A stretch of 64,000 nucleotides of DNA, from NCBI GenBank assembly GCA_022566315.1, contig JADFJC010000003.1, positions 6,109 through 70,108 of the forward strand, in the 5' to 3' direction. The notes under the pieces were generated by a model. That model did no database searches. It saw nothing but the letters and a program-made list of their open reading frames with translations, and was not told the DNA's origin. The stretch comes from Planctomycetota bacterium. Its GTDB lineage: Bacteria; Planctomycetota; Phycisphaerae; Sedimentisphaerales; Anaerobacaceae. A program made the position numbers and the translations under genes. Shown here in pieces: positions 2,709-58,312 of the stretch (within the stretch, counting starts at the first letter, position 1; each line of letters opens with the position of its first letter).

Positions 2709-4025
2709 ATGAAAAAACGAAGTATTAATGTATTGGGCAAATTGGTGTTTATTACAATAATGGTTGGGGTGTTCACACCGGCGACTGTGTTGGCCCAGCA
2801 GAACGCTGACACAAGGATAGATAAGCTCGAATCGCAGCTTAAATCGCTTCAAGACGAGCTGGCAAAGTTAAAAGCAGAAAGAGCAGCGCCCCCGGTTGAC
2901 CAAAAGCAGATCGAACAACTGGTCAGCAAAGCTTTTGAAGAGAAAAAGGATGAGCTCGGAACCGTACCTGATTGGGTACAGAATATTAAAATTAGCGGTG
3001 ACTTTAGGTATCGCCACGAGCAGCTCGACTCAGAAGACCCAAGCACTGGCAGATGGAACAACGGAGTAACTCGCAATCGGATGCGTGCGAGATTGATGTT
3101 CGATGCAAAGGTCAACGATGACTGGGATATTGCCTTCAGAATCGCAACTGGTAGTGATAAGAGTCCGATTTCAACAAATCAGGACCTTGAAGACTCTTTC
3201 TCAAAGAAGGATGTCTGGGTGGACCTTGCCTACTTCACCTGGCATCCCGCAGCACAGGAAGGACTGAAGGTCTTCGGTGGCAAGATGAAGAACGCCTTTT
3301 ACAGGGCTGGTAAGAGCGAGCTTATTTGGGATACCGACCTTAATCCTGAAGGTCTCGCAGTTCAGTATGTGATGCCCCTAAGTGATGTCGACCAAATATT
3401 CATCAACGGTGGTGGTTTTTGGGTTGATGAAAGTACCAGCGGTGTCGATACGTCACTGTGGGGTCTGCAATCTTACTGGAAGCGCACGATTGGAAATTCG
3501 GATTACATCCTTGCTGGTGCGAGCTACTATGACTTTGGCAACCTGCAAGGGCGGGACGACCTTAAAGGCACTTGGGGATCCTCAAGCTTCTTAGGCAATA
3601 CCTCCTCGGGCGGGCTATACACAAGTGACTATGATATCTTTGAAGGCTTCGCCGAATATGGTTTCCAATGGAGAGGTATGCCACTTGCCGTCTTTGGCAA
3701 TTACGCCCAAAATACCGTTGCGAGCACCTCTGAAGACACAGGCTGGCTGATTGGATGCAAACTCAACAAGGCCAAGGAGCCGGGCTCCTGGGAACTGAGA
3801 TATGACTACAGGGATCTGGAAGCAGATGCCGTAGTCGGTGCTATGAGTGAATCTGATTGGCTTAGCGGTGGAACAGACGGCAAAGGCCATAAGTTCGTCT
3901 TCAAGTATCAGTTAGCCAAGAATGTCCAGGCAGGTCTCACCTATTATCACCTTGAAAATAATCGTAACAGTACTCGTGACGCGGATTATCGAAGGCTGCA
4001 AGCAGACCTGGTTTTCAAGTTCTAA
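2709..4025 (+). CDS. Putative outer-membrane porin with N-terminal coiled coil
   Basis: 438-aa ORF. Signal peptide (…VFTPATVLAQQ), coiled-coil segment (IDKLESQLKSLQDELAKLKAERA), then a beta-strand-rich sequence ending in ...ADLVFKF. A terminal aromatic residue is typical of OM beta-barrels. Confidence 0.6.
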   Translation: MKKRSINVLGKLVFITIMVGVFTPATVLAQQNADTRIDKLESQLKSLQDELAKLKAERAAPPVDQKQIEQLVSKAFEEKKDELGTVPDWVQNIKISGDFRYRHEQLDSEDPSTGRWNNGVTRNRMRARLMFDAKVNDDWDIAFRIATGSDKSPISTNQDLEDSFSKKDVWVDLAYFTWHPAAQEGLKVFGGKMKNAFYRAGKSELIWDTDLNPEGLAVQYVMPLSDVDQIFINGGGFWVDESTSGVDTSLWGLQSYWKRTIGNSDYILAGASYYDFGNLQGRDDLKGTWGSSSFLGNTSSGGLYTSDYDIFEGFAEYGFQWRGMPLAVFGNYAQNTVASTSEDTGWLIGCKLNKAKEPGSWELRYDYRDLEADAVVGAMSESDWLSGGTDGKGHKFVFKYQLAKNVQAGLTYYHLENNRNSTRDADYRRLQADLVFKF

Positions 4026-4087
4026 CTTGGACAAATAACAAGCTGAAACAACGTTAGTGTCGAACAACTAACTTAGCTAATAATTAA

Positions 4088-4128
4088 AGGCAAGCCTACA
4101 GATGAAATTTGTGGGCTTGCCTTTTTTC
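4088..4128 (+). terminator. Rho-independent terminator after the porin gene
   Basis: Stem AGGCAAGCC (4088-4096) pairs with GGCTTGCCT (4113-4121) and is followed directly by TTTTTT. Confidence 0.7.
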
Positions 4129-4388
4129 TTAGTTTTTAGCTAAAGTTGAACGAAGTGAAAGGCTGGAAAAAGGCGAAATGAGGCAGGAGCAGCAGCAGTG
4201 ATAAGGATGCAAAAATACTTGATATCGACAATCCCATTTGCAATCACAGGCCATACTTGGTACAATGTAGTGGTTCCCCCGACACAAAAAAAGACAAAGA
4301 GTATTTTCTCGCTTTACAAAGATCGAACATTTTGTTAGCATAATAATTTATTAGGGATATACAAATAACCCAGTCAGGAAAAAAGTTA

Positions 4389-4546
4389 GGACTGGTAAAG
4401 AAATTAGGTTTCGTTTTTGGCTGAGCGAGGACAAGGCTGGCAAGGAAGCAAAACGCAGGACTACTGGTTGGTAGTCCGAGTTTTGCTGACACCGCCAGCC
4501 GAAGCCGCAGCCAGACAAAAATGGAAGATAATTTATTTACAAGTCC
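4389..4546 (+). mobile_element. MITE-A copy 1 (158-bp palindromic element, flanked by TTA/TTA)
   Basis: Near-identical to 16724-16881 and 58329-58486. The ends GGACTGGTAAAGAAATTAGG... and ...TAATTTATTTACAAGTCC are imperfect inverted repeats (~29/36). The flanking triplet TTA is repeated directly at 4386-4388 and 4547-4549. Confidence 0.75.
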
Positions 4547-4563
4547 TTAGGAAAAGGCGTGGT

Positions 4564-5814
4564 ATGAAAATGAAAAGATTCTGGATTTTAGCAGGAATGT
4601 TAGGGATTTGTGGCAGTTGGGTATGGGTGTTCGAGGTTTATTCGAAACAGCCTAATGATTCTACTGCACCGGCTCCACAGCCAATTCTTACCCAAGCAGC
4701 GAGAGGCTACGCAGGTTCAAAAAAATGTATACACTGCCATCAACAATATTACAAGGGATGGAAATCTACCTTGCACAGCAAGATGGAACAGCCTGTTGTT
4801 TTAAAAGGGCCTGATAAAACAGTAGAAGCAGATTTCTCATCGGACAATCCTATTTTAACCTTTGGGTTAGAAGATGTCGATATGGTGGTAGGAAGTCGTT
4901 TTAAGCAAAGGTATGCCAAGAAAATCGGCGATGATTTCTACATGCTTCCGGCCCAGTGGAATGTAGAAACGAAGCAGTGGGTCAGATATCAACCGAAAAA
5001 TGACTGGTGGGCGGCAGAAAGTGTCTATCCCACGGAGTGGAACAAACGCCCCACGTCAAAATTATGCGAAGGATGCCATACTACAGGTTTTGATATCAAA
5101 ACAAAGGAACCTGTCGAACGAAATATTGCCTGCGAGTCATGCCACGGCGCGGGTGCTCTTCACGCAAAAAGTAAAGAAAAAGCGGACATCATCAATCCGG
5201 CAAAACTTGATCATGAACGGGGAAACATGGTCTGTTTTCAGTGCCATATGAGCGGCAGGCCGCCTGAGGGGGAATTTGAAGCCTATGCCTGGCCGGTTGG
5301 CTATAAGCCGGGAGAGGATTTGAAAGAGTATTGGGTCTATGCGAAGCCAACGGGAAAGAATGCGTATGAGATGTGGGCAGATGGATATGCCCATAAAAAT
5401 CGTGTTCAGGGTAATACCTTTATCAAAAGCAAAATGTATCGTAAGGGGCTTCGCTGTTTTACCTGCCATGACCCACATGGAAGCCGATATACCGCTTTTA
5501 CTGTAAAATCCGGTAAAAACAATTCCCTCTGTCTTTTGTGCCACGCAGAGAACTCTCCTCAGGCCGTATTTAACGTTTCTCTTTCTGAGCACACCCATCA
5601 TAAGGTTGACGGCCCTGGAAGTAGATGCATAGAGTGTCATATGCCGAAGACCGGTAAAAATGCCGTGAAGTGGGATGCAAGGGATCATAGCTTCAAGTTT
5701 ATATCACCACTATCGACCATAAGGTTTGGCACACCTAACGGCTGCAATAATTGTCACACAGACAAAACTCCTGAATGGGCATTTGAAGAAGTTGAGAAAT
5801 GGAAATTTGAGTGA
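4564..5814 (+). CDS. Membrane-anchored octaheme c-type cytochrome
   Basis: Eight CxxCH motifs (CIHCH, CEGCH, CESCH, CFQCH, CFTCH, CLLCH, CIECH, CNNCH). N-terminal hydrophobic anchor MKMKRFWILAGMLGICGSWVWVF. I place the start at ATG 4564 because the upstream part of the 4417 ORF is MITE-A sequence. Paralog of 7565-8902. Confidence 0.85.
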   Translation: MKMKRFWILAGMLGICGSWVWVFEVYSKQPNDSTAPAPQPILTQAARGYAGSKKCIHCHQQYYKGWKSTLHSKMEQPVVLKGPDKTVEADFSSDNPILTFGLEDVDMVVGSRFKQRYAKKIGDDFYMLPAQWNVETKQWVRYQPKNDWWAAESVYPTEWNKRPTSKLCEGCHTTGFDIKTKEPVERNIACESCHGAGALHAKSKEKADIINPAKLDHERGNMVCFQCHMSGRPPEGEFEAYAWPVGYKPGEDLKEYWVYAKPTGKNAYEMWADGYAHKNRVQGNTFIKSKMYRKGLRCFTCHDPHGSRYTAFTVKSGKNNSLCLLCHAENSPQAVFNVSLSEHTHHKVDGPGSRCIECHMPKTGKNAVKWDARDHSFKFISPLSTIRFGTPNGCNNCHTDKTPEWAFEEVEKWKFE

Positions 5815-45282: not shown

Positions 45283-46575
45283 TTAGAATTTGGCAAATCG
45301 AACCACGACCTTGCCTGTAAGGTCCGGTTCCAGAAGCTCTCCCTTATCAATGCTCTGTTTCCTGCCTTGCTGGATATGACTGCGGCTTCTTGCCGAATAA
45401 TAAAGCCCCACTGCGTCGTTCTCTTCTAAAGATTTCCTGTCCACATAAACCAGAGCAATTTGTTTTTCACCTATTCTTGCACAACTCAACACCCAACCAA
45501 TACTTCGGCCGTGTTTGTCCAGCACACCATCGTTTTGTCGAACAGGTCGGATACCCTTTGTTCCCGGCAATTCAATCCTGGCAACCTTCATATCATATTC
45601 TCTGGATATCCGCTCCATAGCCGTCTTGCCGATAAAGAACTTTTTTTCCAACTTGACGGCCCAGCCGTATCCAGCCTCGAATGGTGAAATGCCAAACTTG
45701 CCTGCCAGCTCATGTCCGTAAAGTGGAAGACCAGCCTCGATTCTCAGGCTATCACGCGAACCCAGACCGCACGGCAGCAGCCCCAATGGCTTTCCCGCCT
45801 GGAGAATCGTTTCCCACAGTTGCGATGCCCTCTCCGGGTGCACGAACAATTCAAATCCGCTTTTGGCACCCGTGTAGCCGGTGCGCGAGATTAAGCATCC
45901 AATGCCCTTAATATCCGTCTCCATGAACTGAAACGGTCGCAAATCGGCAATTTTCGACTGGGTTTCTTTGTTTTGGGTCAAGACAGAAAACACGTCCAGT
46001 GATTTGGGGCCTTGCAGGGCAATGTCAACCATGCAATCATAGGACAGAGAACAGATGACAGAGGACAGAGGACAGATAATCTGACCTCCGACTTCTGACT
46101 TCTGTCTTCTGACTTCTGACTTCTGACTTCTGTTTTTAAGCAGAGCATTGATCCAATTTTTTATCTTGGTATTATTCGCAGCATTAACGACAACGAAAAA
46201 CTTGTCCCGGTCCTTGCGATAGACTATAACGTCATCAAGAACACCTCCGGATGCATCCAAAATAAAAGAATATTGTGCGTGCTTGACCTTAAGGTTCGTG
46301 ATGCTATTGGTGGTGAGCTGGTCTATGAACTCGGCAGCATCAACTCCGGAAATCTCCAATACGCCCATGTGAGTACAATCAAAAATACCGGCTGCTTCTC
46401 GTGCGGCGGTGTGCTCACTGGTAATAGACGAATACCACAGCGGCATAAGATATCCGGCGAATGAGACGATGTGGGATTTGTCGGTCAGTCCAACATTCTG
46501 ATCGTATAAGACAGTTTGTTTGGGAGCTTTCTCGGCTTCACGCAATTGAGACTTATTGGCATCGTTCTGTAACAC
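45283..46575 (-). CDS. gcvT: Aminomethyltransferase (glycine cleavage T protein) carrying an in-frame repeat-derived insertion
   Basis: 430 aa. FAGYLMPLWY, GIFDCTHMG, ALQGP, ISRTGYTGAKSGFELF, GLGSRDSLRIEAGLPLYGHEL. It is ~60 aa longer than typical GcvT as I recall it. Residues ...KNRSQKSEVRRQKSEVGGQIICPLSSVICSL... are encoded by the 46041-46133 repeat. GTG start is uncertain. Confidence 0.85.
   Translation of the reverse strand: MLQNDANKSQLREAEKAPKQTVLYDQNVGLTDKSHIVSFAGYLMPLWYSSITSEHTAAREAAGIFDCTHMGVLEISGVDAAEFIDQLTTNSITNLKVKHAQYSFILDASGGVLDDVIVYRKDRDKFFVVVNAANNTKIKNWINALLKNRSQKSEVRRQKSEVGGQIICPLSSVICSLSYDCMVDIALQGPKSLDVFSVLTQNKETQSKIADLRPFQFMETDIKGIGCLISRTGYTGAKSGFELFVHPERASQLWETILQAGKPLGLLPCGLGSRDSLRIEAGLPLYGHELAGKFGISPFEAGYGWAVKLEKKFFIGKTAMERISREYDMKVARIELPGTKGIRPVRQNDGVLDKHGRSIGWVLSCARIGEKQIALVYVDRKSLEENDAVGLYYSARSRSHIQQGRKQSIDKGELLEPDLTGKVVVRFAKF
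46041..46133. repeat. 7-nt-periodic imperfect palindrome (ACAGAGG x n / TCTGACT x n), copy inside gcvT
   Basis: AGGACAGAGAACAGATGACAGAGGACAGAGGACAGATAAT | CTGACCTCCGACTTCTGACTTCTGTCTTCTGACTTCTGACTTCTGACTTCTG. It is 93 nt (31 codons) with the frame preserved. Confidence 0.7.
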
Positions 46576-46629: not shown

Positions 46630-46810
46630 ACTATGTCCCTCTGTCCTTTTACCTGAGAGAATTATCCCTTCGGTACCTGCAGTATCTACAGTTTCTCCAG
46701 AGAGCCGTCCGACCAGGATCCTTTTGCCTGAGAGTTTCCCTGCTGCTATTTTAGACTACAGGTTACACCTTCGGCGCCCCAAATTCGGGGACTCTCTCCT
46801 GGCCATCATC
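46630..46810 (-). promoter_or_regulatory. Tandem glycine riboswitch (two aptamers) in the gcvT leader
   Basis: Minus-strand reading. Aptamer 1: CCAGGAGAGAGTCCCCGAATTTGGGGCGCCGAAGGTG...CTCTCAGGCAAAAGGATC. Aptamer 2: CTCTCTGGAGAAACTG...GGTACCGAAGGGATAATTCTCTCAGGTAAAAGGAC. These match the GGAGAG...CCGAAGG...CTCAGGCAAAAGGAC consensus cores. Confidence 0.8.
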
Positions 46811-50255: not shown

Positions 50256-50416
50256 ATACAGACTACCTACTCATGGGCAATAAGGAGTTGTCTGCAAAAA
50301 TTGGACTAAAAGCCTTTCGCCGCATGGTATTCTACAACGGTAATATCGAGTGTCGCCTGCTGAAATACGAACTCTACAAAGGAACAAAACAACCGCGAAA
50401 CAGCGGGCAAGACTAA
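50256..50416 (+). pseudogene. Duplicate 3'-end fragment of the THUMP methyltransferase gene (52746-53924)
   Basis: Encodes ...LMGNKELSAKIGLKAFRRMVFYNGNIECRLLKYELYKGTKQPRNSGQD*, compared with LMGNKELAVKIGLKASRRMVFYNGKIECRLLKYELYKGTKQPRNSDQD* in the full gene. Identity is ~85-90% nt by eye. Homology continues ~80 nt past the stop, to ~50497. Confidence 0.8.
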
Positions 50417-50488
50417 CCCCAACCTTGCTAAGATGTATCATTGTGATTTTACTGGTAATGGATATAATACCGCTATGAACTGCCTTTA

Positions 50489-50507
50489 GGCAGATAAGTA
50501 ATGATTG
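50489..50507 (+). repeat. Cassette-boundary motif, degenerate copy (GGCAGATAAGTAATGATTG)
   Basis: It aligns with GGCGGATAAATATTGAAG of the other copies (~14/18), at the position where rlmL-3' homology ends. Confidence 0.4.
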
Positions 50508-50660
50508 TAAAGGGGACAGCCAAAGAGATGAAAGAATCATTAGCACATTTGCCGGAATTAAAATGGGATGAATTAGAACAACTCGCCCCCCTGCGTTAAA
50601 AAACTACATGAAGTGACAGAAAAGAATCTGTAAACAAAAAATAGGTGGCATTGTGTAGAT

Positions 50661-51509
50661 ATGAAAAAAGTTATTGATATCAATTACCTCCAGAAGCCCG
50701 TGTTAGAAGACTATCTTGCAAAAAATAGAGATAACTATGTTGTCTTTACCGACTTTGCCTGTATGGAAATTTATAAATGCAATGCATTGAAGAACCTTGC
50801 TTGCAAACTCAAAATTGTCTCCCAGTACCCTGATCAAGTAATTGTACTCAAAGGAACGCGAGAGATAGTTAGCCTAACTCTTGCCCCCAACAAGCTACCA
50901 CAAAGCCTTATAGACAACGCACAAACCATAGGTTTTCCTGAATTCTGTAATCAGACTAAATCTGCTTGCGAAGGTAACAATTTGCTTTCAAAGGAAGTGA
51001 GATTAAAAGAATCTTATGCGTCTCATTATCTTGAAGAACAAATGATATCTCATCAACTCATCGTTAATGCAATTAAAGGATTTGCCAAATCATATGGCCC
51101 ATCTTATTTAAGAGCACTTAGAACTGGCAAAAAGCTTCCTCCAGACATGCAGGAGAAGATAACTGAACATATCTATCTTATAACACTTAATTTTTTTAAA
51201 GGACATCCTGATGTTCAAGCCCAACCTGAATTTGATTCTTTAAAGAACAGCTACGTTTTTCGCTACTCAGTAAGCATATATCTTTTGTCACTAAGATGGA
51301 TAAAGGATGGAGGCATAGAGCAAGTCTCTGCAAAAAAACTACGTAATGACGCTGTAGACATGAGCTATGTCACCTACGCAACATATTTTGATGGCCTATT
51401 GTCCCTGGATAAGAAGCTCAATGCAATATATCGAGACACCTTAAATTATCTTCATTACTTTAACAGCCCTCAATTAATACAAGAGATTGGACCCTCCTTC
51501 GTCCCTTAG
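50661..51509 (+). CDS. PIN-like nuclease domain protein with large insertion (tentative); cargo of junction copy 1
   Basis: 282 aa. The N-terminal KKVIDINYL...VVFTDFACMEIYK and C-terminal RNDAVDMSYVTYATYFDGLLSLDKKL resemble the first Asp/Glu and last Asp strands of PIN domains. Motif-level call only. Confidence 0.4.
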   Translation: MKKVIDINYLQKPVLEDYLAKNRDNYVVFTDFACMEIYKCNALKNLACKLKIVSQYPDQVIVLKGTREIVSLTLAPNKLPQSLIDNAQTIGFPEFCNQTKSACEGNNLLSKEVRLKESYASHYLEEQMISHQLIVNAIKGFAKSYGPSYLRALRTGKKLPPDMQEKITEHIYLITLNFFKGHPDVQAQPEFDSLKNSYVFRYSVSIYLLSLRWIKDGGIEQVSAKKLRNDAVDMSYVTYATYFDGLLSLDKKLNAIYRDTLNYLHYFNSPQLIQEIGPSFVP

Positions 51510-51574
51510 GGACTACGGAGGACAGGCGAGTCCGCCCCCATAAATAAGGGGTAAATACCTGGGGCACAAGCTCC

Positions 51575-51629
51575 GGCGGATAAATCCGCCACACGGATGG
51601 CGGATAAATATTGAATAAGCAACGGGAAC
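51575..51629 (+). repeat. Cassette-boundary motif copy A (hairpin arms + GGCGGATAAATATTGAATAAGCAACGGGAAC)
   Basis: GGCGGATAAATCCGCC ACACGGAT GGCGGATAAATATTGAATAAGCAACGGGAAC. The same motif occurs at 54009-54063 and 54807-54837. Confidence 0.7.
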
Positions 51630-51745
51630 TTTTTTGCACAGGTGTTTTTTTTGTCATTTCGACCGAAGTGGAGAAATCTGTTTAAATAGACCTCTCGACT
51701 GCGCTCGAGGTGACAATGGGGCGCAATAATTAACTTTACTTGGCC

Positions 51746-51868
51746 TTACTGATGTTTTTTGCGGGCCTGGCGACGGCGGTCGGTTTCTTTTAACAGCCTT
51801 TTGCGGATTCTAATTGAATTAGGGCAAATCTCAACAAGCTCATCCTCTTGAAGGTACTCCATCGCCGT
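51746..51868 (-). pseudogene. Duplicate 3'-end fragment of typA
   Basis: Encodes AMEYLQEDELVEICPNSIRIRKRLLKETDRRRQARKKHQ*, compared with AMEYIQEDELVEICPSSIRIRKRLLKETDRRRYERKKPQ* at the typA C-terminus. Identity is ~80-85% nt by eye. The upstream part of the 89-aa ORF is unrelated. Confidence 0.8.
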
Positions 51869-52263
51869 GGCTGAAGACGCGCAGGAGGGGCTGGAACCAG
51901 CAACCGGAGCATGGCCGAATGGGTCGAATGGATCCGTGGCGTTAAAATAGGTAAAATATCTACGATTTTTCAACCAAAAGCGATGATACCTTCGAACAAA
52001 AATTAAATTTTTCAAAAATTCTTTAACTCTCTTGTTGACATCGAGTTACGAGAATCCCGAATCTCGATTCGATGACTTTTTTCGTATCAAACGTGCAGGT
52101 AGCTCTAATTATAGAGGCACTACTTTTTTCGCCTCCGGCAATAAGAAGACAAATAACCAATTAACTATGAACTATGAACCATTTACAAGCATCGAGAATC
52201 TCGGAGCGCAGCGCAGACCCCGCACCAATTGAGCTTAGCTCACGACTAATTGGTGCTGGGCAA

Positions 52264-52289
52264 GGCATCTCTACAATTGTAGAGATGCC
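52264..52289. repeat. Perfect 26-bp palindrome
   Basis: GGCATCTCTACAATTGTAGAGATGCC. REP-like hairpin or operator upstream of the methyltransferase gene. Confidence 0.6.
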
Positions 52290-52313
52290 TCTACAAATCA
52301 ACCCTTTTTATGC

Positions 52314-52680
52314 AAAACAAACCCAATTTCCAAAAAAGTCAAATGAACGTAAGTATCTATTTACAGACGGATTATGAAAATAAATCGCATTGGACACTTA
52401 GTGAAAACAAACCCAATACAAACCCAATCAAACCCAATTTCCAAAAGGCCAAAATGAACGTAAACTTATATGTTATAGAGGATTACAGAAAAAAAGATGA
52501 TTTCTTAGTCCGAATAAACAAACCCAATTGCCGAAAGGGTAAAAATTGATGCAAAGTTTGTATTTACAAAGGATTATGAAGAATAATGCGGATATGGGCT
52601 ATGAAAAAACAAACCCAAACAAAGCCAATTTCTTCAAAGGCCGAAATGAACTTAAAATCGATTGCCAAAAAATCTGGCCA
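52314..52680 (+). repeat. Degenerate tandem repeat, ~90-110-nt unit x ~4
   Basis: Units start at ~52314, 52404, 52514 and 52604. Each begins AAAACAAACCCAATTTCCAAAAGGCCAAAATGAACGTAA-like and continues ...TTACAGAGGATTATGAAAA... Confidence 0.65.
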
Positions 52681-52745
52681 CACCCTGATACAGCATCCGC
52701 CGCTTTGGTGTTGACAAAAGATGCAATTGAACGTAAATAATTTAG

Positions 52746-53924
52746 ATGGATATTAAAGAGCGCAAAAATATATTAGTTACCTGTGGGCCGGGGCTTAAAG
52801 AATATCTGCAGGCAGAACTTGAAGGATTAGGCTTTGAGATAGTCGGAAGTCACGTCGGAAGTGTTGTCACACGCGGGTCGTTTATCGATTGTATGAAACT
52901 GAATTTCTGTCTGCGAACCGCTTATAACGTCCTTTATCTTCTAAAAGAGTTTCGTTGCGGCAGCAGCGAATCACTCTACAAACAAATCAACAGACTGCCA
53001 TGGGAAAATATCATCGCCCCTGAAGAATATCTATGCGTACTCTCGCGGGTCGATACCTGGTCGATTAACAACAGCATGTATCCGAGCCTCAAGGTCAAAG
53101 ATGCAATCGTTGACCGCATATACAAAAAGACCGGCTCCAGGCCTGATAGCGGCCCGGACAGAAACAAGGTCGTCGTCAATCTTTTCTGGAAGGAGCACAG
53201 GGCATGGATATATCTTAATACTTCCGGCGTAAAACTTTCTGACCGTAACTATCGTAAGATGCCGCACAAAGCACCGCTTCGCGAATCGTTGGCGGCCGGG
53301 ATTATCATGGCGACAGGATATGACGGTTCACAAGATATCGTGCTGCCGATGTGCGGCAGTGGTACGCTTGCTATCGAAGCTGTTCTTTTAGCGATGAACA
53401 GGCCGGCCGGCAGCCTGCGCAGCAATTTTGGTTTTAAACATGTGAAAGTTTTTGATGAGCAGATATGGCAGGAAATACGAAATAGTGTTCGCAAGAATAT
53501 ACGCAAGGACGGGCTGCGAAAACGTGTTATCGCCACGGATATAGATGAACAAGCTATCGAAGCGGCCAGGCAGAACGCGCGAACGGCGGGAGTCGAACAG
53601 TTGATAGAATTTGATGTGTGTGACTTCGCCGATACCGAAGTGCCGGAAGGTAAGGGGATTGTGGTGATGAATCCGGAATACGGGCTGCGGCTGGGCGAAC
53701 TTGAACAGCTCGAAAAAGAGTATAAACGCATTGGCGACTTTCTCAAACAGAAATGCGCCGGTTATACAGGCTATCTACTCATGGGCAATAAAGAGCTGGC
53801 TGTAAAAATTGGATTAAAAGCTTCTCGCCGTATGGTATTCTACAACGGCAAAATAGAGTGCCGTCTGCTGAAATATGAACTCTACAAAGGAACAAAACAA
53901 CCGCGAAACAGCGACCAGGACTAA
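52746..53924 (+). CDS. THUMP-domain class I SAM-dependent RNA methyltransferase (RlmL/UPF0020-like)
   Basis: 392 aa. N-terminal ferredoxin-like/THUMP region, PMCGSGTLAIEA (SAM motif I), ATDID and VMNPEYGLRLG (NPPY-type motif IV). Confidence 0.85.
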   Translation: MDIKERKNILVTCGPGLKEYLQAELEGLGFEIVGSHVGSVVTRGSFIDCMKLNFCLRTAYNVLYLLKEFRCGSSESLYKQINRLPWENIIAPEEYLCVLSRVDTWSINNSMYPSLKVKDAIVDRIYKKTGSRPDSGPDRNKVVVNLFWKEHRAWIYLNTSGVKLSDRNYRKMPHKAPLRESLAAGIIMATGYDGSQDIVLPMCGSGTLAIEAVLLAMNRPAGSLRSNFGFKHVKVFDEQIWQEIRNSVRKNIRKDGLRKRVIATDIDEQAIEAARQNARTAGVEQLIEFDVCDFADTEVPEGKGIVVMNPEYGLRLGELEQLEKEYKRIGDFLKQKCAGYTGYLLMGNKELAVKIGLKASRRMVFYNGKIECRLLKYELYKGTKQPRNSDQD

Positions 53925-54008
53925 CCCTAACCTCACGTTGTGGCTTACTAAGATATATCGTTGTGGTTTTACTGGTAATGGATATAATGCCGTTATGAAC
54001 TAACTTTA

Positions 54009-54063
54009 GGCGGATGAATCCGCCACACGGATGGCGGATAAATATTGAAGAATCAACGGGAAC
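54009..54063 (+). repeat. Cassette-boundary motif copy B
   Basis: GGCGGATGAATCCGCC ACACGGAT GGCGGATAAATATTGAAGAATCAACGGGAAC. It lies immediately after the end of rlmL-3' homology and 8 nt before the HEPN gene ATG. Confidence 0.7.
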
Positions 54064-54070
54064 AGGGAAT

Positions 54071-54682
54071 ATGAATTCTAAAAAAAAATGGGAATACTTT
54101 AGCAAGAGGCTTGAAACCATGTGGGATGTATACCGCGAATGTATGGAACACTTTGATGCAAAATTTTCAGAAAAGTGGAAAGTATTTTGCGAAAGTAGAG
54201 ATGAGCAAAAATACAAAGAATACCTTCGTGAGATTGAATTCCCATACATAAATACTCTGAATAGCGCAATGCTAATTGCATTTTGTTCGCTAACAGAACA
54301 TGTGGTGGCTGATATTACGAATGAAAATGTGCCGGGATATGAAGAAAAGAAGAAACGGAAAAGAGGAAATTGGCTTGTTAGAAATATTAAACTTCTAAAC
54401 GAACGCGGGTTTGATATAGACCAAAATGGCGAAGATGTCAGACTTTTCTCCTATTATATACAAATTAGAAATTGTGTAGTCCACAATGGAGGAAAGATTT
54501 CGAATTCAAAACATTCGAAGCAGCTTAAAGAGGCGATTGATGCTGTTGAGAAGTATGCTAAAGACCCTAATTATAATATGATAAAAATTAAAGATGATTA
54601 TTTGATGTTAGGGAGTGGTTTGATTTCGGATGTTGTTGAAAAAAGTGAAGATATAATAGAAAGAATTCTTGAAAAAATATAG
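54071..54682 (+). CDS. HEPN-domain protein (predicted RNase; Rx4H motif)
   Basis: 203 aa from MNSKKKWEYF; the upstream part of the ORF is the boundary motif. It is all-alpha by composition. YYIQIRNCVVHNGGKIS carries the R-x4-H HEPN signature in the expected C-terminal helix. AT-rich. Confidence 0.55.
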   Translation: MNSKKKWEYFSKRLETMWDVYRECMEHFDAKFSEKWKVFCESRDEQKYKEYLREIEFPYINTLNSAMLIAFCSLTEHVVADITNENVPGYEEKKKRKRGNWLVRNIKLLNERGFDIDQNGEDVRLFSYYIQIRNCVVHNGGKISNSKHSKQLKEAIDAVEKYAKDPNYNMIKIKDDYLMLGSGLISDVVEKSEDIIERILEKI

Positions 54683-54806
54683 CTCGGTAGGGTGCGCAGC
54701 AGGCTTGCCTGTGCTTCAGGTACTTGTTTGCACACGCGGAATCATTCAATAAAAGAGATTGGACGAGTCCACCATCCGTCTTTGCTAAAGCTACGCCGGA
54801 CAAGTA

Positions 54807-54837
54807 GGCGGATAAATATTGAAGGACCAACGGGAAC
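54807..54837 (+). repeat. Cassette-boundary motif copy C
   Basis: GGCGGATAAATATTGAAGGACCAACGGGAAC, 125 nt after the HEPN gene stop. Confidence 0.7.
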
Positions 54838-55104
54838 TTGTTATACAGAAAGAAACTTCTCTGTCTTTCCCGTCTTATACAGACTATATAATCGGTATTA
54901 GATATTTGATAACAGGAATATGTGATGAGCAAGAACAAGCCAGAAGTTTTTATTATTGAATCTCTGGGAATGAATGATGAAAGGAAAAACCTAATTAGTG
55001 AACTTCTACAATACTGTCTGGGCTGCTGTACAATTCAATAAACCACACAATAAGTAACTTATCAGCAACATGGCATTCTGTACTTTAGAAAAGTTAATAC
55101 TTTT

Positions 55105-55665
55105 TTAAGCGGGGAACAAGCTATTTTCCTTATACTTAAGTGACTCAATTTTCCTCTTCAGCCCTATTTTTTTATCAGCCTTTACAAGGACATTTTCTGA
55201 CATATAAGAAATCAATTTTTCAAAATCGTTTGCATTAGAAATTTCGACAAATTCTTTAATCTTATTTATGAACACTACTGTTTTTTTCTTATTAGCCAGC
55301 ATTTCAATTGCATTACATAAAGTACCTGTACTCTTGGTATCCCATACCATTAAGCCATAGTCAGCGATGGATGCCATCTCTATGTCTTTTGCAGTAAAGA
55401 AAGCACGGGTACCTGGCTTATACTTCGAATAAGTGTTATGTGTTTTCCAGTGGCCCAAATTATTTCTAAGTGAATCGCCGCTATGAAATATTGTTACATT
55501 CTGATAGGATGCTTTGCATAAATAATCTTGAATTGAACTGTCAACACCGCTGGCATCTCCCAATACAATATCAAATCCCGAGCTAATAATGTTGTCAATC
55601 CTATCTTTGACTTTTTTATCAATGTTCTTAATTTGCATTGAACCAGATATGAAAACAGTTGTCAT
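55105..55665 (-). CDS. DprA/SLOG-superfamily (Rossmann-like nucleotide-binding) protein
   Basis: 186 aa. VFISGS..., IVLGDASGVDSSIQDYL (the GxAxGxD motif of DprA/Smf-type SLOG domains) and WDTKSTGTLCNAIEM (the second glycine-rich SLOG motif). It begins 2 nt after the PRTase stop. Confidence 0.55.
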   Translation of the reverse strand: MTTVFISGSMQIKNIDKKVKDRIDNIISSGFDIVLGDASGVDSSIQDYLCKASYQNVTIFHSGDSLRNNLGHWKTHNTYSKYKPGTRAFFTAKDIEMASIADYGLMVWDTKSTGTLCNAIEMLANKKKTVVFINKIKEFVEISNANDFEKLISYMSENVLVKADKKIGLKRKIESLKYKENSLFPA

Positions 55666-55667
55666 AA

Positions 55668-56252
55668 TTATCTTTTCCTGGTAAACGCAACAACATAGAT
55701 ATTATTAACTTTGGAATATGTCTTAAGAGTTAGAGCAGCAGCATTTAGTGAAGTCCCTGAACCATAAATATCATCAATTAACAGCACATCCCAGCAATCT
55801 TCACCGACTATTTCGTCTTTAATAGAAAATGCAGTTGCTAATACTTTTATCTTTTCTTTGATGGATTCTATATCTTTCATTTGAGGAGTTCTAACTTTTT
55901 TGATTAATATGTTTTCACATAGTGGAACATCCATCTTTTTAGCAATTTCCTTGGCTAATTCTGTTAAAGGCTGAAATACCCTTCGTTTTGAAGGTGGCAT
56001 AGGAACAATAAATCCTACTGAACTAAGTTTTGATTTCAAATTTTCGATAAATGCATCAACAAGAAGAGGGATCTTTTTACGATCGTTTTTATACTTCAAT
56101 TGATACATTGCTTCACCTACATCTGTTCTAACGGTATCAAAGTCAGGATGACCATATTGGTTATCACCGATAAATACTGAAGATTTTACGTGTTTGTCTA
56201 AGGTATAACCAGCATGCCAGTTACCATTAATTATTTTAACATTAACATCCAT
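55668..56252 (-). CDS. ComF-like phosphoribosyltransferase (PRTase) lacking the N-terminal zinc finger
   Basis: 194 aa. The PRPP-binding loop VLLIDDIYGSGTSLNAAALTL sits near the C-terminus, preceded by VPMPPSKRR...QPLTELAKEIAKKM, as in ComF/GntX-family proteins. AAGGA SD. Confidence 0.7.
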   Translation of the reverse strand: MDVNVKIINGNWHAGYTLDKHVKSSVFIGDNQYGHPDFDTVRTDVGEAMYQLKYKNDRKKIPLLVDAFIENLKSKLSSVGFIVPMPPSKRRVFQPLTELAKEIAKKMDVPLCENILIKKVRTPQMKDIESIKEKIKVLATAFSIKDEIVGEDCWDVLLIDDIYGSGTSLNAAALTLKTYSKVNNIYVVAFTRKR

Positions 56253-56452
56253 ATTATAATCCTTAAAAATTTGGAGAAAATTAAAGGGGTCAGTTTACCC
56301 CCAAGGGGCTTTGCCCCCTAAGTGACACCTTTTTTGTAAGAGCACGGCCCATATAACTCCACTTTTCTTTGAAAAGCCTAACCTACAACCCCCAATTTGT
56401 CAAGAAATCTGCGTAATCAGCGCAATCTGTGGCTAATTCTTTTCGTGTTGTC

Positions 56453-58312
56453 TTACTGCGGTTTTTTGCGTTCGTAACGCCGTCTATCCGTTTCTTTTAA
56501 CAGCCTTTTGCGGATTCGAATCGAAGATGGGCAAATCTCAACAAGCTCATCCTCTTGAATGTACTCCATCGCCGCTTCAAGACTCATCTTTCTTGCAGGT
56601 CTGACCTTGGCTGCATCGTCTTTGCCCGCTGCCCGAATGTTGGTAAGCTGCTTGCTTCTTACAACGTTTACAGTTATGTCCTTCTCCTTGCAGTGTTCCC
56701 CGACTACTTGTCCTTCATATACTTTTTCTCCCGGCTCAACAAAGAAAATGCCGCGGTCGTATAAGGCATCAAGTGCATAAGCGGTAACTTGTCCCATAGT
56801 GGTCGCAATCATAACTCCCGCCTTCCGCTGAGGTATCGCTCCCCGCATCAGCTCATATCTTTCAAACGTATGATGCATAATCGCTCTGCCGCTGGTCGCA
56901 TTCATCATCCTGGCATTTAGGCCGAACAAACCCCGCGAAGGTATCAAAAATTCCATGTGAATAAAATCACTCGCTCCGCTTTTGGGATCTATTTTAATTA
57001 TTTCACTTCTACGGTCGCCAAGAAGACTCATCACGGAATTCTGGCAATCCAACGGGCAATCCACCGCAAGTAATTCTATTGGTTCATGCCGCCTCTCATC
57101 GACTATTCTCAAAATCACATTCGGCTTGCCCACACAAACCTCATACCCTTCACGCCGCATATTCTCTAACAATATCCCAAGATGCATCAGCCCTCTGCCC
57201 GAAACATTGAATTCTTCAGGACTCTGCCCCTCTTCCACCCTTAACGCAACATTCTGCTGAAGCTCCTTTTCAAGCCTTTCTCCAATTTGTCTGCTTGTTA
57301 CATATTTGCCGTCTCTGCCTGCGAAAGGCCCATTATTAACTCTGAATGTCATTGTCATCGTCGGCTCATCAATAGAGATGACCGCAAGCCTCGAAGGTTT
57401 ATCCGCACAGGCAATCGTGTCACCTATCTCAACAGGATCAAGTCCCGATATCGCACAGATATCACCTGCCTGAACGCTTGAAACCTGCTTTCTGCCAAGG
57501 CCGTGAAACTGATGAATATGCATAACTTTCTGCTGGGTATGCAGACTTTCGGCGTCAATTACTGTAACTAACTGACCTTCGGTTATTGTTCCCGCGAAAA
57601 CCTTGCCAATTGCTATTCGTCCAACATACTCCGAATACTCCTGGTTTGTCACTAACATTTGCAACGGCGCGTCCTGGTCAACTTTTGGCGAGGGAATATT
57701 GTTTATTATCGCATCGAATATTGCCTGGACATTATCGGTTTTATTAGCCAGATCTGTTGTTGCCCAACCCTCTTTGGCTGATGCGTAAACAAGTGGAAAA
57801 TCGAGAGCATCATCATCTGCGCCGAGTGATACGAGCAGATCGAATACTTCATTTACGACATCGTCTGGCCTGCTGTTTTCGCGGTCAACTTTGTTTATGA
57901 CTACTACTAATTTTAGTTTGTGTTCGAGGGCTTTGGTCAATACAAATCTTGTTTGCGGCATTGGGCCTTCAAATGCATCTACCAGGACTAATACGCCGTC
58001 TGCCATTTTTAAAACTCGTTCGACCTCGCCGCCAAAATCGGCATGGCCTGGAGTGTCGATCAGATTGATCTTATATTCATCGCCTTTTGAGTCGGTATAG
58101 TTGATCTCGCAGTTTTTGCTTAGGATTGTTATGCCGCGTTCTTTTTCGAGGGGGTTTGAATCCATTATCAAATTGTGCTGGCCGCCGGCTAATTTGTCGA
58201 GATCTTCGGTTCTGAACATGCCGGACTGGTAGAGAAGCTGGTCTACGAGCGTTGTTTTGCCATGATCAACATGGGCGATTATTGCTACATTACGAATATA
58301 ATCTGAATACAT
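56453..58312 (-). CDS. typA: Translational GTPase TypA/BipA
   Basis: 619 aa. IRNVAIIAHVDHGKTTLVD, DTPGHADFGGEVER, NKVDR and the BipA-specific C-terminal domain ending ...ICPSSIRIRKRLL. Confidence 0.92.
   Translation of the reverse strand: MYSDYIRNVAIIAHVDHGKTTLVDQLLYQSGMFRTEDLDKLAGGQHNLIMDSNPLEKERGITILSKNCEINYTDSKGDEYKINLIDTPGHADFGGEVERVLKMADGVLVLVDAFEGPMPQTRFVLTKALEHKLKLVVVINKVDRENSRPDDVVNEVFDLLVSLGADDDALDFPLVYASAKEGWATTDLANKTDNVQAIFDAIINNIPSPKVDQDAPLQMLVTNQEYSEYVGRIAIGKVFAGTITEGQLVTVIDAESLHTQQKVMHIHQFHGLGRKQVSSVQAGDICAISGLDPVEIGDTIACADKPSRLAVISIDEPTMTMTFRVNNGPFAGRDGKYVTSRQIGERLEKELQQNVALRVEEGQSPEEFNVSGRGLMHLGILLENMRREGYEVCVGKPNVILRIVDERRHEPIELLAVDCPLDCQNSVMSLLGDRRSEIIKIDPKSGASDFIHMEFLIPSRGLFGLNARMMNATSGRAIMHHTFERYELMRGAIPQRKAGVMIATTMGQVTAYALDALYDRGIFFVEPGEKVYEGQVVGEHCKEKDITVNVVRSKQLTNIRAAGKDDAAKVRPARKMSLEAAMEYIQEDELVEICPSSIRIRKRLLKETDRRRYERKKPQ

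Follow-up and report, generated by a model that had tools for sequence, protein, structure and literature searches.

A compact, mobile phosphoribosyltransferase–SLOG gene pair related to the ShosTA and PsyrTA systems, located 3' of typA in a Planctomycetota genome

A stretch of 64,000 nucleotides from a Planctomycetota contig (hereafter, the window) was analysed. Immediately 3' of typA, two minus-strand ORFs were found with 2 nt between them (55666-55667), an arrangement that a preliminary description of this DNA had given and that the ORF list bore out. The upstream ORF encodes a phosphoribosyltransferase (PRTase), and the downstream ORF encodes a SLOG/DprA-like protein. The features of the locus are as follows.

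55668..56252, minus strand: PRTase gene, predicted toxin, 194 aa, ATG start (ORF list)
55105..55665, minus strand: SLOG/DprA-like gene, predicted antitoxin, 186 aa, ATG start (ORF list)
55746..55787, minus strand: PRPP loop VLLIDDIYGSGTSL, PRTase residues 156-169 (motif check, family alignment)
55540..55563, minus strand: SLOG motif 1, LGDASGVD, residues 35-42 (alignment; in-register hhalign)
55300..55332, minus strand: SLOG motif 2, STGTLCNAIEM, residues 112-122 (alignment)
55114..55128, minus strand: C-terminal tail E-N-S-L-F, SLOG protein residues 180-184 (family consensus Q-x-x-[LM]-F)
56253..56452, minus strand: intergenic region from the typA stop to the PRTase start (consensus scans)
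56425-56409 and 56302-56285, minus strand: two terminator-like hairpins (consensus scan)

The GC content was 0.33-0.34 across the pair versus 0.44-0.48 across typA, which agreed with the AT-richness noted earlier, and it lay about 12 points under that of the flanking genes. The PRPP loop and both SLOG motifs named in the preliminary description were present at the residues listed above. Next to the pair, that description had also placed a HEPN gene; a plus-strand gene is present (54014-54682), and its HEPN identity is weakly supported (PADLOC RTasHEPN, E 1e-5).

Upstream of the PRTase gene, a consensus scan detected an AAGGA ribosome-binding site 9 nt ahead of the ATG. Together with the two hairpins, this site suggested that the pair probably has its own expression signals, as judged from consensus scans, and the SLOG gene is probably translationally coupled to the upstream PRTase gene. 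A sigma-70 promoter scan yielded sites no more numerous than in shuffled sequence, and the Rfam scan of the window returned only a glycine riboswitch far away from the pair. No tRNA gene was found in the window, indicating that the island is not tRNA-associated. Identical proteins are on deposit as MCH8118309 ('ComF family protein') and MCH8118308 ('hypothetical protein') from a Planctomycetota MAG. In addition, 872 90% clusters were homologous to the 186-aa SLOG protein, and relatives of it were present in at least 430 representative genomes, distributed patchily over Proteobacteria, Acidobacteria, Planctomycetota, Firmicutes and Bdellovibrionota. These results indicated that the two ORFs are genuine genes and not chance ORFs.

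An anti-phage system composed of a DprA-like protein and a PRTase had been named in the preliminary description; this precedent does exist in the P2 hotspot (PMC9122126), and sources on the system treat it as ShosTA. The reference ShosTA of E. coli APEC O1 consists of ShosT (424 aa) and ShosA (328 aa), with structures PDB 8zva-8zvd. Its mechanism, which had been called unknown, has now been described: the toxin is PRPP-dependent, and the antitoxin binds ssDNA and RecA and does not bind the toxin (PMC11961720, PMC12961424). The toxicity of ShosT requires a DD pair equivalent to D160/D161 of the PRTase studied here (D331A/D332A; PMC11961720) and is boosted by an N-terminal hydrolase domain (PMC11961720), and ShosA is destabilised when its SAM domain is deleted. 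PsyrTA/RqlHI has a DprA-like antitoxin, and its toxin needs the PRTase domain to be toxic; the aspartate at the equivalent position of that domain is needed for RqlH toxicity (D663A), and the RqlH PRTase domain expressed alone is not toxic (PMC4670107). Both ShosTA and PsyrTA defend against phages (PMC11961720 and PMC9122126, among others), and escape mutations reported for ShosTA affect SSB, primase-helicase or host shut-off genes. A preprint assigns the retron type III-A PRTases to the same defence-associated PRTase clade (10.1101/2025.09.30.679545).

The PRTase of the pair comprised an N-terminal beta domain of about 45 aa followed by a type-I PRT core, and its AF2 model had a pLDDT of 92.9. 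The PRPP, PPi and flexible-loop motifs were all intact. Conserved residues included P84, S88, R91, Q94, P95, K126, D160, D161 and G166, and the last three, which belong to the PRPP loop, did not vary in the family. When the window PRTase was compared with the PADLOC models, it matched PsyrT at 7.6e-14 and ShosT at 2.9e-10, and both models matched all family members (28/28). The PsyrT match corresponded to the C-terminal domain (model positions 538-683 of 689). Using hhalign, the PRTase aligned with Pf-phage ShosT at 80% probability (E 1.4e-5) over 116 columns, including the PPi and PRPP loops. The best Foldseek match in the PDB was H. pylori ComF (7p0h, E 8.8e-7, TMq 0.60, 196 columns), and ShosT (8zvb/c/d) was also matched with E of about 4e-5. 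Sequence searches of the PDB with the single PRTase and the family profile returned generic PRPP-loop matches only and did not reach the ShosT structures. The PADLOC PRTase_III-A model matched the window PRTase at about 1e-3 and the best family member at 4e-5. These results demonstrated that the PRTase is a PRPP-binding protein, groups in one clade with the toxin domains of ShosT and PsyrT and is ComF-like by fold, so its earlier designation as a ComF-type PRTase held. The earlier statement that the zinc finger of competence ComFC is missing was likewise correct: residues 1-45 contained no cysteine (0-1 in relatives), which leaves no 4-Cys zinc finger. In the Pfam scan of the PRTase, no hydrolase domain was found, and residues 1-45 formed a small beta domain. 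Since the isolated RqlH PRTase domain is not toxic, a stand-alone PRTase may require this beta domain or another factor for toxicity.

In the AF2 model of the SLOG protein (pLDDT 95.5), residues 1-144 formed a Rossmannoid core, which was followed by three helices and a short, flexible C-terminal tail. Glycine-rich loops followed strands 1 and 2, and a GT loop preceded the long helix; the corresponding motifs were GS, GDAxGxD and SxGT. About 37 residues, mostly polar, were invariant in the family, including G8 and S9; G36, D37, A38, G40 and D42 of motif 1; R67, N68 and N69; W108 and D109; and S112, G114, T115, N118 and E121 of motif 2. The top Foldseek match in the PDB was ShosA (8zva, E 7.8e-5, prob 1.0, TMq 0.53), a link with TM-scores of 0.53-0.59, and the next matches were DprA of H. 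pylori and S. pneumoniae (4ljk, 3uqz). SLOG proteins, including DprA-like, DUF2493 and YAcAr proteins, dominated the viral structure matches in BFVD. At the sequence level, none of the curated Pfam, NCBIfam, PADLOC and PHROG models reached threshold for the SLOG protein, and the PADLOC ShosA and PsyrA models gave no match at E<=1. The Pfam model PF02481 (DNA_processg_A) gave E 0.17 and 11.5 bits versus a cut-off of 29.6, with sub-threshold matches in just 10/48 relatives. In hhalign, the SLOG family aligned with ShosA/DprA-like proteins in register and without significance (E 0.2 and 0.048), and the alignment of motif 1 with the SGxAxGxD of two DprA-like antitoxins was in register and statistically weak. 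Sequence searches of the PDB with the single protein and the family profile produced chance matches only, such as antibody light chains. Because the sequence similarity to DprA and ShosA was not significant, the link rests on structure. According to its predicted model, the 186-aa protein has a SLOG fold, to which ShosA and then DprA come closest among solved structures, and the SLOG/DprA-type identity proposed earlier agrees with this placement.

The SLOG fold also raised the possibility of a nucleotide-metabolite or signalling module, in which the PRTase would make an unusual ribonucleotide and the SLOG protein would hydrolyse or bind this product in a LOG-like manner; neutralisation would then be the chemical reversal of the product. 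The number of invariant, mostly polar residues is more than a simple DNA-binding surface would seem to need, and the nucleotide-binding SLOG domains of ThsA and TRPM proteins were among the structural matches. SLOG-PRTase pairs, including one noted for a YpsA branch, have been predicted in nucleotide-centred conflict systems, according to the passage of PMC6459960 that cites Burroughs 2015, and the absence of binding between the ShosTA toxin and antitoxin would also fit metabolite antagonism. However, the best structural matches were the ssDNA-binding ShosA and DprA and not LOG or ThsA. LOG phosphoribohydrolases carry the catalytic signature PGGxGTxxE, and by inspection this signature is lost in the SLOG family, which reads S-T-G-T-L-x-N-x-x-E with an invariant Asn at the LOG Glu position. 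The family is also basic (median pI 9.1). Weak YAcAr matches occurred in 7/48 relatives, all under the Pfam threshold, and one homologue carries the UniRef name DUF2493; YpsA was absent from the 25 Pfam families listed for the 48 relatives, and no solved YpsA structure was among the 50 PDB matches listed. We regard a metabolite module as unlikely.

The linkage of the two genes was then evaluated across their relatives. In 75/82 genomic loci, the PRTase gene immediately preceded the SLOG gene in the same orientation, and according to the ORF calls the two were separated by a short gap or overlapped briefly. The SLOG gene lay downstream in 23 of the 26 viral PRTase loci. The same PRTase-first order is found in the ShosTA annotated in phage PfAC02a. 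Among decayed loci, an intact SLOG gene was accompanied by a truncated PRTase remnant in five and stood alone in two, while the search for the opposite decay (PRTase retained, SLOG gone) covered the 26 viral contigs only. Loss of the PRTase with retention of the SLOG gene is as expected of a toxin and its antitoxin. The SLOG protein was more conserved than the PRTase in 94/94 pairs (median identity to the window proteins 52.7% vs 42.4%), which fits an antitoxin whose target is conserved machinery of the host rather than the toxin. A long C-terminal extension was present in 11 SLOG homologues, and an HTH_37 DNA-binding domain was detected in the extension of all those scanned (6/6), an antitoxin-like kind of fusion. 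Furthermore, in loci L135-L137, a 196-aa PRTase of the same architecture was paired with a canonical DprA-like protein that matched PsyrA at 1e-62 (L136: 1.1e-62), ShosA at 3e-42 and Pfam DNA_processg_A at 2e-43. These loci bridge the compact pair to the canonical systems. Both the fusion of a DNA-binding HTH to some SLOG homologues and the ability of the same PRTase type to pair with a canonical DprA-like protein argue against a metabolite module. A conserved third component was considered and rejected, as no family occurred in more than 8 of the 143 neighbouring proteins in the nearest-neighbour survey.

The genomic context indicated that the pair is mobile. It was found on 101 plasmids, of which 55 are conjugative, and the carriers included clinical Klebsiella, Enterobacter and E. 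coli plasmids. The copy on an E. coli IncFII plasmid adjoined restriction-modification genes, whereas a Methylorubrum plasmid copy adjoined resolvase and ParAB genes near a RelE/ParE toxin gene. Homologues of both genes are carried by E. coli plasmid NZ_CP021538 (PRTase WP_032635041, and WP_032635040). An inovirus prophage had a copy at one end, and the subfamily occurred in at least 24 viral contigs. IMG/VR prophage-type contigs carried the pair; a tblastn search of 50,697 genomes of isolated phages with the SLOG protein gave no match. Among the nearest neighbours in 36 loci, phage integrases were most abundant, and RosmerTA, Lamassu, Hachiman, CBASS, Kiwa and type IV restriction proteins also occurred. 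The cargo of the RlmL-typA interval differed between related genomes, and relatives 80-89% identical occupied other chromosomal contexts. Thus the variable hotspot and the mobile, defence-associated setting of the preliminary description were confirmed, and a fixed position of the housekeeping kind was not seen. Collectively, the two genes are almost always co-inherited and move among plasmids, prophages and defence islands.

The carriage on plasmids, more than half of them conjugative, the Methylorubrum copy beside partitioning and toxin genes, and the copy at the prophage end would also be consistent with an addiction-only module that stabilises plasmids, prophages and islands by post-segregational killing and has no role in phage defence. 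However, genes of Lamassu, Hachiman, CBASS, Kiwa, RosmerTA and restriction systems recurred as neighbours, and the characterised relatives ShosTA and PsyrTA are phage defence systems. Moreover, addiction and defence are mutually compatible roles. A function restricted to addiction therefore appears improbable to us.

A role as housekeeping competence genes, with ComFC and DprA handling incoming ssDNA in natural transformation, was also weighed. The pair resembles ComFC in its ComF fold, with N-terminal strands extending the PRT sheet and PRT core loops, and DprA in its Rossmannoid core with motifs in the same order. ComF was the top structural match of the PRTase, and DprA was among the best matches of its partner. 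A functional pairing of both protein types is known from natural transformation, and an interaction between ComFC and DprA is documented for C. jejuni and S. pneumoniae (PMC9005727). However, ComFC requires a 4-Cys zinc finger (PMC9005727), which is missing here, and both proteins score far under the family cut-offs (29.6 bits versus 233.55 for TIGR00201 comF, in addition to the Pfam DprA score above). Unlike a competence locus, the pair is AT-rich relative to its flanks, does not keep its position even between relatives that are 80-89% identical, is carried by plasmids and prophages and is patchy across phyla. These results left a housekeeping competence function extremely improbable.

The pair was further compared with the characterised conflict systems. 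Like ShosTA, it consists of two adjacent co-oriented genes, PRTase first and DprA-fold partner second, and it is carried by prophages (including inoviruses) and defence islands. Both sequence and fold show the PRTase to be a homologue of ShosT, and it retains the PRPP-binding DD loop; the partner has the DprA Rossmannoid fold, with ShosA 8zva as nearest solved structure. Unlike ShosT, the compact PRTase lacks the N-terminal HAD/pyrophosphatase domain (ShosT residues 1-164; HAD_2 at 3.9e-23 in Pf-phage ShosT), with the beta domain of about 45 aa instead, and it lacks C-terminal zinc ribbons. Unlike ShosA, the partner (186 vs 328 aa) has no SAM domain (ShosA residues 1-94). Its first Rossmannoid beta strand begins at residue 3, so a SAM domain cannot fit N-terminally. 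Neither of the two PADLOC ShosA models detects this partner, nor does Pfam DNA_processg_A. In the comparison with PsyrTA/RqlHI, the PRTase comes closest in sequence to the PsyrT C-terminal domain; however, no RecQ-like helicase precedes the 194-aa PRTase, and the PsyrA model misses the SLOG partner. With the retron type III-A effectors, there is weak similarity in the PRTase domain, whereas here the partner is a SLOG protein and the nearest-neighbour survey gave no conserved third gene adjoining. The SLOG proteins of the YAcAr, DUF2493 and YpsA clades in the Burroughs/Aravind predictions are likewise small and stand-alone and are predicted to pair with PRTases, and viral structural neighbours of the SLOG protein bear YAcAr/DUF2493 names.

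The kinship to the DprA-PRTase system suggested in the preliminary description was thus upheld for toxin homology, fold and gene order, but not for the accessory domains, the SAM domain and detection of the antitoxin by HMMs. With no hydrolase, helicase or SAM domain and with silent antitoxin HMMs, the pair belongs to a distinct compact subfamily and is not a strict ShosTA member. Homology and linkage were demonstrated, and we regard the pair as a new compact form of ShosTA/PsyrTA-type systems.

Taken together, we consider it probable that the pair is a mobile, self-contained conflict module of the toxin-antitoxin type, a minimal version of ShosTA, PsyrTA (RqlHI) or 'DprA-PRTase'. By analogy with these systems, the compact pair would be expected to show toxicity, neutralisation and phage defence. 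Based on ShosTA and RqlHI, the PRTase would spend PRPP in modifying a purine-related acceptor or DNA itself, and this modification would cause replication stress and then growth arrest or death. The SLOG protein would not contact the toxin; it would counter the effect of the toxin at the DNA level, in a type IV-like antagonism, by binding ssDNA and recruiting recombination or replication factors. Phage infection might remove or divert the antitoxin, for example when the host is shut off or when phage ssDNA accumulates in large amounts, and so result in abortive infection. On a plasmid or prophage, the same logic would lead to post-segregational stabilisation.

The C-terminal tail of the SLOG protein was examined in its family. 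A Q..[LMF]F tail was observed in 106/120 homologues; 98 of these tails came no more than 4 residues before the C-terminus, and 63 ended the protein. In the window protein, the tail had a low pLDDT (63), and the copy reads ENSLF, with Glu in place of the consensus Gln. The HTH-fused homologues show EQFSLD instead, and Pf-phage ShosA is without the QxxLF tail conserved in the SLOG family. This conserved tail is previously unreported. The consensus for clamp binding is QL[S/D]LF, or QxxLF (PMC12309361), and the tail of the SLOG family resembles such a beta-clamp-binding motif in sequence; its function in this respect is hypothetical. We tentatively propose, as a rather doubtful extension, that this putative binding motif for the beta sliding clamp (DnaN) anchors the mini-SLOG antitoxin to the replisome. 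Alternatively, the tail could be a protease degron that gives a labile antitoxin. If the clamp tether were true, the module would guard the replication fork, and the damage induced by the PRTase would be neutralised solely while the antitoxin is clamp-bound. Phage takeover of replication would then free the antitoxin from the clamp and trigger the toxin; possible triggers would include clamp poisoning, host DNA degradation and competing phage clamp-binding proteins. Clamp-based sensing has not been described for ShosTA, for which the reported link is RecA binding.

Defence annotation probably overlooks this subfamily: the compact antitoxin is not recognised by any PADLOC v2 model, and public records label the two proteins as 'ComF family protein' and 'hypothetical protein'. 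The higher conservation of the SLOG protein than of the PRTase (94/94 pairs) and the clamp-like tail point to a target in the host machinery. In the compact pair, any toxicity would not be attributable to a helicase or pyrophosphatase domain, nor any neutralisation to a SAM domain. It therefore offers a minimal system for asking what the PRTase toxins of ShosTA, PsyrTA and the retron effectors modify.

The pair lies directly downstream of typA on the same strand and is convergent with a plus-strand gene. The features concerned were as follows:

54014-54682, plus strand: 222-aa HEPN-like gene, AT-rich, convergent on the SLOG gene
55105-55665, minus strand: SLOG ORF, 186 aa
55668-56252, minus strand: PRTase ORF, 194 aa
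56453-58312, minus strand: typA

According to the ORF list and composition of the window, the two ORFs of the pair were separated by 2 nt, and their GC content was 0.33-0.34 versus 0.44-0.48 for typA. The 200-nt spacer between typA and the PRTase gene contained two terminator-like hairpins and, downstream of them, an AAGGA ribosome-binding site located 9 nt before the PRTase ATG; thus the pair probably has its own expression signals, as far as these predicted elements go, which do not include a promoter. Both proteins were already public from a Planctomycetota MAG, as MCH8118309 ('ComF family protein') and MCH8118308 ('hypothetical protein'). Every motif quoted in the preliminary description was found at its position, and the PRTase indeed lacked the zinc finger, with zero cysteines in residues 1-45.

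To the 194-aa PRTase, the Pfam model Pribosyltran gave a sub-threshold score (21.8 bits, threshold 26.3), and TIGR00201 (comF) gave 29.6 bits against a cut-off of 233.55. Among the PADLOC models, the protein matched those of PsyrT (its C-terminal domain, 7.6e-14), ShosT (2.9e-10) and the Retron III-A PRTase (about 1e-3), and all 28 aligned relatives matched both the PsyrT and ShosT models. When the family profile was compared by hhalign with the annotated ShosT of Pseudomonas phage PfAC02a, the probability was 80% over 116 aligned columns, within which both the PPi loop (IVPMPPSK) and the PRPP loop were located. The confident AlphaFold model (pLDDT 92.9) had H. pylori ComF as its top PDB match in Foldseek (7p0h, E 8.8e-7, TMq 0.60, 196 columns), followed by OPRT and APRT enzymes and then by three ShosT structures (E ~4e-5, TMq 0.55). 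The invariant residues of the family included P84, S88, R91, Q94, P95, K126, D160, D161 and G166; therefore, judged from the sequences, the PRPP-binding machinery looks intact. Residues 1-45, which fell outside the coverage of the PsyrT model, formed three or four beta strands; W12, G15, H21 and R42 were invariant here. This N-terminal beta domain may be the counterpart of the 'hood' in type I PRTases and would then shape the acceptor site.

The 186-aa protein had no significant curated model in Pfam, NCBIfam, PADLOC or PHROGs, and across 48 relatives every Pfam match was sub-threshold (DNA_processg_A in 10 relatives, YAcAr/DUF2493 in 7, nucleoside deoxyribosyltransferase in 4). Its AlphaFold model was very confident (pLDDT 95.5, pTM 0.90) and comprised a Rossmannoid core (1-144), three helices (145-180) and a flexible tail. 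The PDB matches of this model were led by ShosA (8zva, E 7.8e-5), followed by DprA of H. pylori and S. pneumoniae and then by the SLOG domains of TRPM channels and ThsA. The named top matches among the viral models of BFVD included DprA-like, DUF2493 and YAcAr SLOG proteins; many phages and giant viruses in BFVD carried such small stand-alone proteins of 100-200 aa, and it is conceivable that some of these act as antitoxin mimics against PRTase-SLOG defence modules. In a weak hhalign alignment (E 0.048) of the family with two DprA-like antitoxins, GDAxGVD fell on SGxAxGxD and KSTGT on KSGGT, in register. The predicted structure places the 186-aa protein in the SLOG superfamily, on the DprA/YAcAr side; the membership originally proposed from motifs holds on structure, which supports it where sequence does not. 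The family was basic (median pI 9.1).

The two genes were linked as one unit. The homologues of the SLOG protein formed 872 clusters at 90%, and at least 430 representative genomes, spread over many phyla, encoded a relative. The PRTase gene was directly upstream on the same strand in 75 of the 82 loci examined, with short gaps or overlaps according to our ORF calls. A PRTase-first search of viral contigs found the SLOG gene directly downstream in 23 of 26 loci. The remaining three (IMG/VR contigs L135-L137) encoded a 196-aa PRTase with the N-terminal domain of the compact family (3968-4558), a divergent member of compact architecture with 34% identity, followed at 4576-5523 by a canonical 315-aa DprA-like protein in place of the mini-SLOG protein. 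This partner matched PsyrA (1.1e-62), ShosA (2.6e-42) and Pfam DNA_processg_A (1.7e-43). These loci are a natural partner swap, a hybrid that ties the compact family to PsyrTA and ShosTA, which indicates that the mini-SLOG protein occupies the functional slot of a bona fide ShosA/PsyrA antitoxin.

Several signs of a toxin-antitoxin pair were observed among the related loci (L-numbers). Seven loci had no intact PRTase. Five of them retained a PRTase remnant, either a C-terminal fragment or an internal deletion, beside an intact SLOG gene (L034, L041, L043 and L053 in Pseudomonas; L070 in Terracidiphilus), and L036 and L059 kept the SLOG gene with no trace of the PRTase. Loss of the toxin with retention of the antitoxin is the decay direction expected of a toxin-antitoxin pair. 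Eleven SLOG homologues of 286-358 aa (as annotated or by our ORF calls) carried a long C-terminal extension; they came from Alphaproteobacteria, a Nitrincola and a Phycisphaeraceae MAG (L032, L037, L038, L040, L045, L049, L060, L065, L067, L074 and L108). The extension contained an XRE-type HTH_37 domain in all six scanned (E 1e-18 to 2e-21), a fusion that is the usual format of autoregulating antitoxins. The database name of such proteins, 'XRE family transcriptional regulator', hides the SLOG domain. In all 94 of the 94 pairs compared, the SLOG partner showed the higher conservation, with a median of 52.7% identity to its window counterpart versus 42.4% for the PRTase. This unusual pattern is consistent with an antitoxin that acts on conserved host machinery instead of binding the toxin, and it parallels the results for ShosA, which forms no complex with ShosT and requires ssDNA and RecA binding for rescue (PMC11961720, PMC12961424).

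The C-terminal tail of the SLOG protein carried a Q-x-x-[L/M/F]-F motif in 106 of 120 homologues, lying within four residues of the C-terminus in 98 of these and at the very end in 63. The intervening positions were variable, and the pLDDT of the tail was low. The motif fits by sequence the bacterial clamp-binding consensus, QL[S/D]LF or QxxLF (PMC12309361). The HTH-fused forms had EQFSLD or EQLSLE internally at the same place, and the window protein and its nearest relatives had ENSLF, and the Pf-phage ShosA had no tail of the QxxLF type. The tail could serve as a clamp tether, or else as a degron.

The pair was also mobile. It was found at the end of an inovirus prophage (Zot, coat B, RstB) and on 101 plasmids; 55 of these were conjugative, and Klebsiella, Enterobacter and E. 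coli were among the plasmid hosts. On an E. coli IncFII plasmid its neighbours were recombinases and type II restriction-modification genes, and on a Methylorubrum plasmid they were resolvase and ParAB genes. Among the proteins encoded nearest to the pair (143 from 36 loci), phage integrase was the most frequent Pfam family (8 proteins), transposases also occurred, and no family was recurrent enough to suggest a third component. PADLOC identified RosmerTA, Lamassu, Hachiman, CBASS cyclase and effector, Kiwa, MADS and type IV restriction proteins among these neighbours. These results demonstrated the horizontal mobility of the pair and its association with defence islands. Its relatives of 89% and 80% identity, from related metagenomes, adjoined an aminotransferase gene or SecDF and a peptidase gene and not typA, so the position is not a conserved housekeeping one. 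Related genomes retained the LepA-DEAD-RlmL ... TypA synteny with wholly different cargo between RlmL and TypA. The 'hotspot' label of the preliminary description is therefore justified.

Part of the hotspot occurred twice in the window (50256-51867 versus 53764-56574). A segment made up of the final ~170 nt of the RlmL-like methyltransferase gene and ~80 nt beyond it (53764-54015) recurred at 50256-50495 (88% identity), as did the terminal 123 nt of typA (56452-56574) at 51745-51867 (85%). Between these, the upstream copy held a different cargo gene, and it looks like the remnant of an earlier RlmL-typA interval after a recombination or replacement event. Two further features of the window were noted:

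50661-51509, plus strand: 282-aa ORF in the upstream remnant, AT-rich (GC ~0.37)
46706-46809, minus strand: glycine riboswitch aptamer (68.2 bits, gathering score 32), upstream of a 430-aa ORF (45283-46575)

The 282-aa ORF matched nothing in Pfam, PADLOC, NCBIfam or PHROGs. The 222-aa HEPN-like gene matched nothing in Pfam or NCBIfam; in PADLOC it weakly matched RTasHEPN, the HEPN model of DRT systems (E 1e-5), and more faintly DzbB. A ~55-nt repeat ending GGCGGATAAATATTGAAG.A.CAACGGGAAC was present at the borders of AT-rich cargo, namely after the 282-aa gene (51575-51629), at the start of the HEPN-like gene (54009-54063) and after it (54783-54837). This repeat matched no Rfam family in the window scan; it could be a boundary marker of cassettes or a site of recombination. 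Upstream of the methyltransferase gene, an AT-rich, A-skewed non-coding region with short ORFs only (52000-52745) contained at least four imperfect ~25-70-nt repeats, 80-190 nt apart (AAACAAACCCAATTTCCAAAA...ATGAACGTAA).

Collectively, the results established that the tightly linked genes encode a SLOG protein with the DprA fold and a PRTase that binds PRPP and belongs to the ShosT/PsyrT clade. The toxicity of ShosT and RqlH depends on the PRPP-loop aspartates and is accompanied by DNA damage, SOS induction and filamentation (PMC11961720, PMC4670107). ShosTA has been proposed to be triggered either by phage ssDNA or by the host shut-off that T7 Gp0.7 causes, to which a labile antitoxin would fall victim (PMC12961424). 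Based on the experiments on ShosT, RqlH and ShosA, whose rescue involves no toxin contact, we propose that the 194-aa PRTase would be a constitutively made, PRPP-dependent toxin, either genotoxic or acting on the nucleotide pool. The SLOG protein would continuously repair or prevent its effect at the DNA, and phage infection or loss of the element would shift the balance to arrest or death. Against this mechanism, the isolated PRTase domain of RqlH is not toxic (PMC4670107), and three accessory domains known from the characterised relatives are missing from the compact proteins: the hydrolase domain of the ShosTA toxin, the helicase of the PsyrTA toxin and the SAM domain of the ShosTA antitoxin. 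The antitoxin HMMs of ShosTA and PsyrTA also miss the compact SLOG protein. An identity as competence ComFC/DprA was rejected, given the missing zinc finger, scores far under the family cut-offs and the mobility of the pair. The pair is evolutionarily tied to ShosTA and PsyrTA and, by analogy, would function like them. According to PMC6459960, which cites Burroughs 2015, SLOG-PRTase gene pairs had been predicted computationally; the searchable literature yielded no experimental study or defence-catalogue entry for the compact subfamily. The pair is a real compact variant of a known defence/toxin-antitoxin kind, ordinary-looking, widespread and under-annotated.
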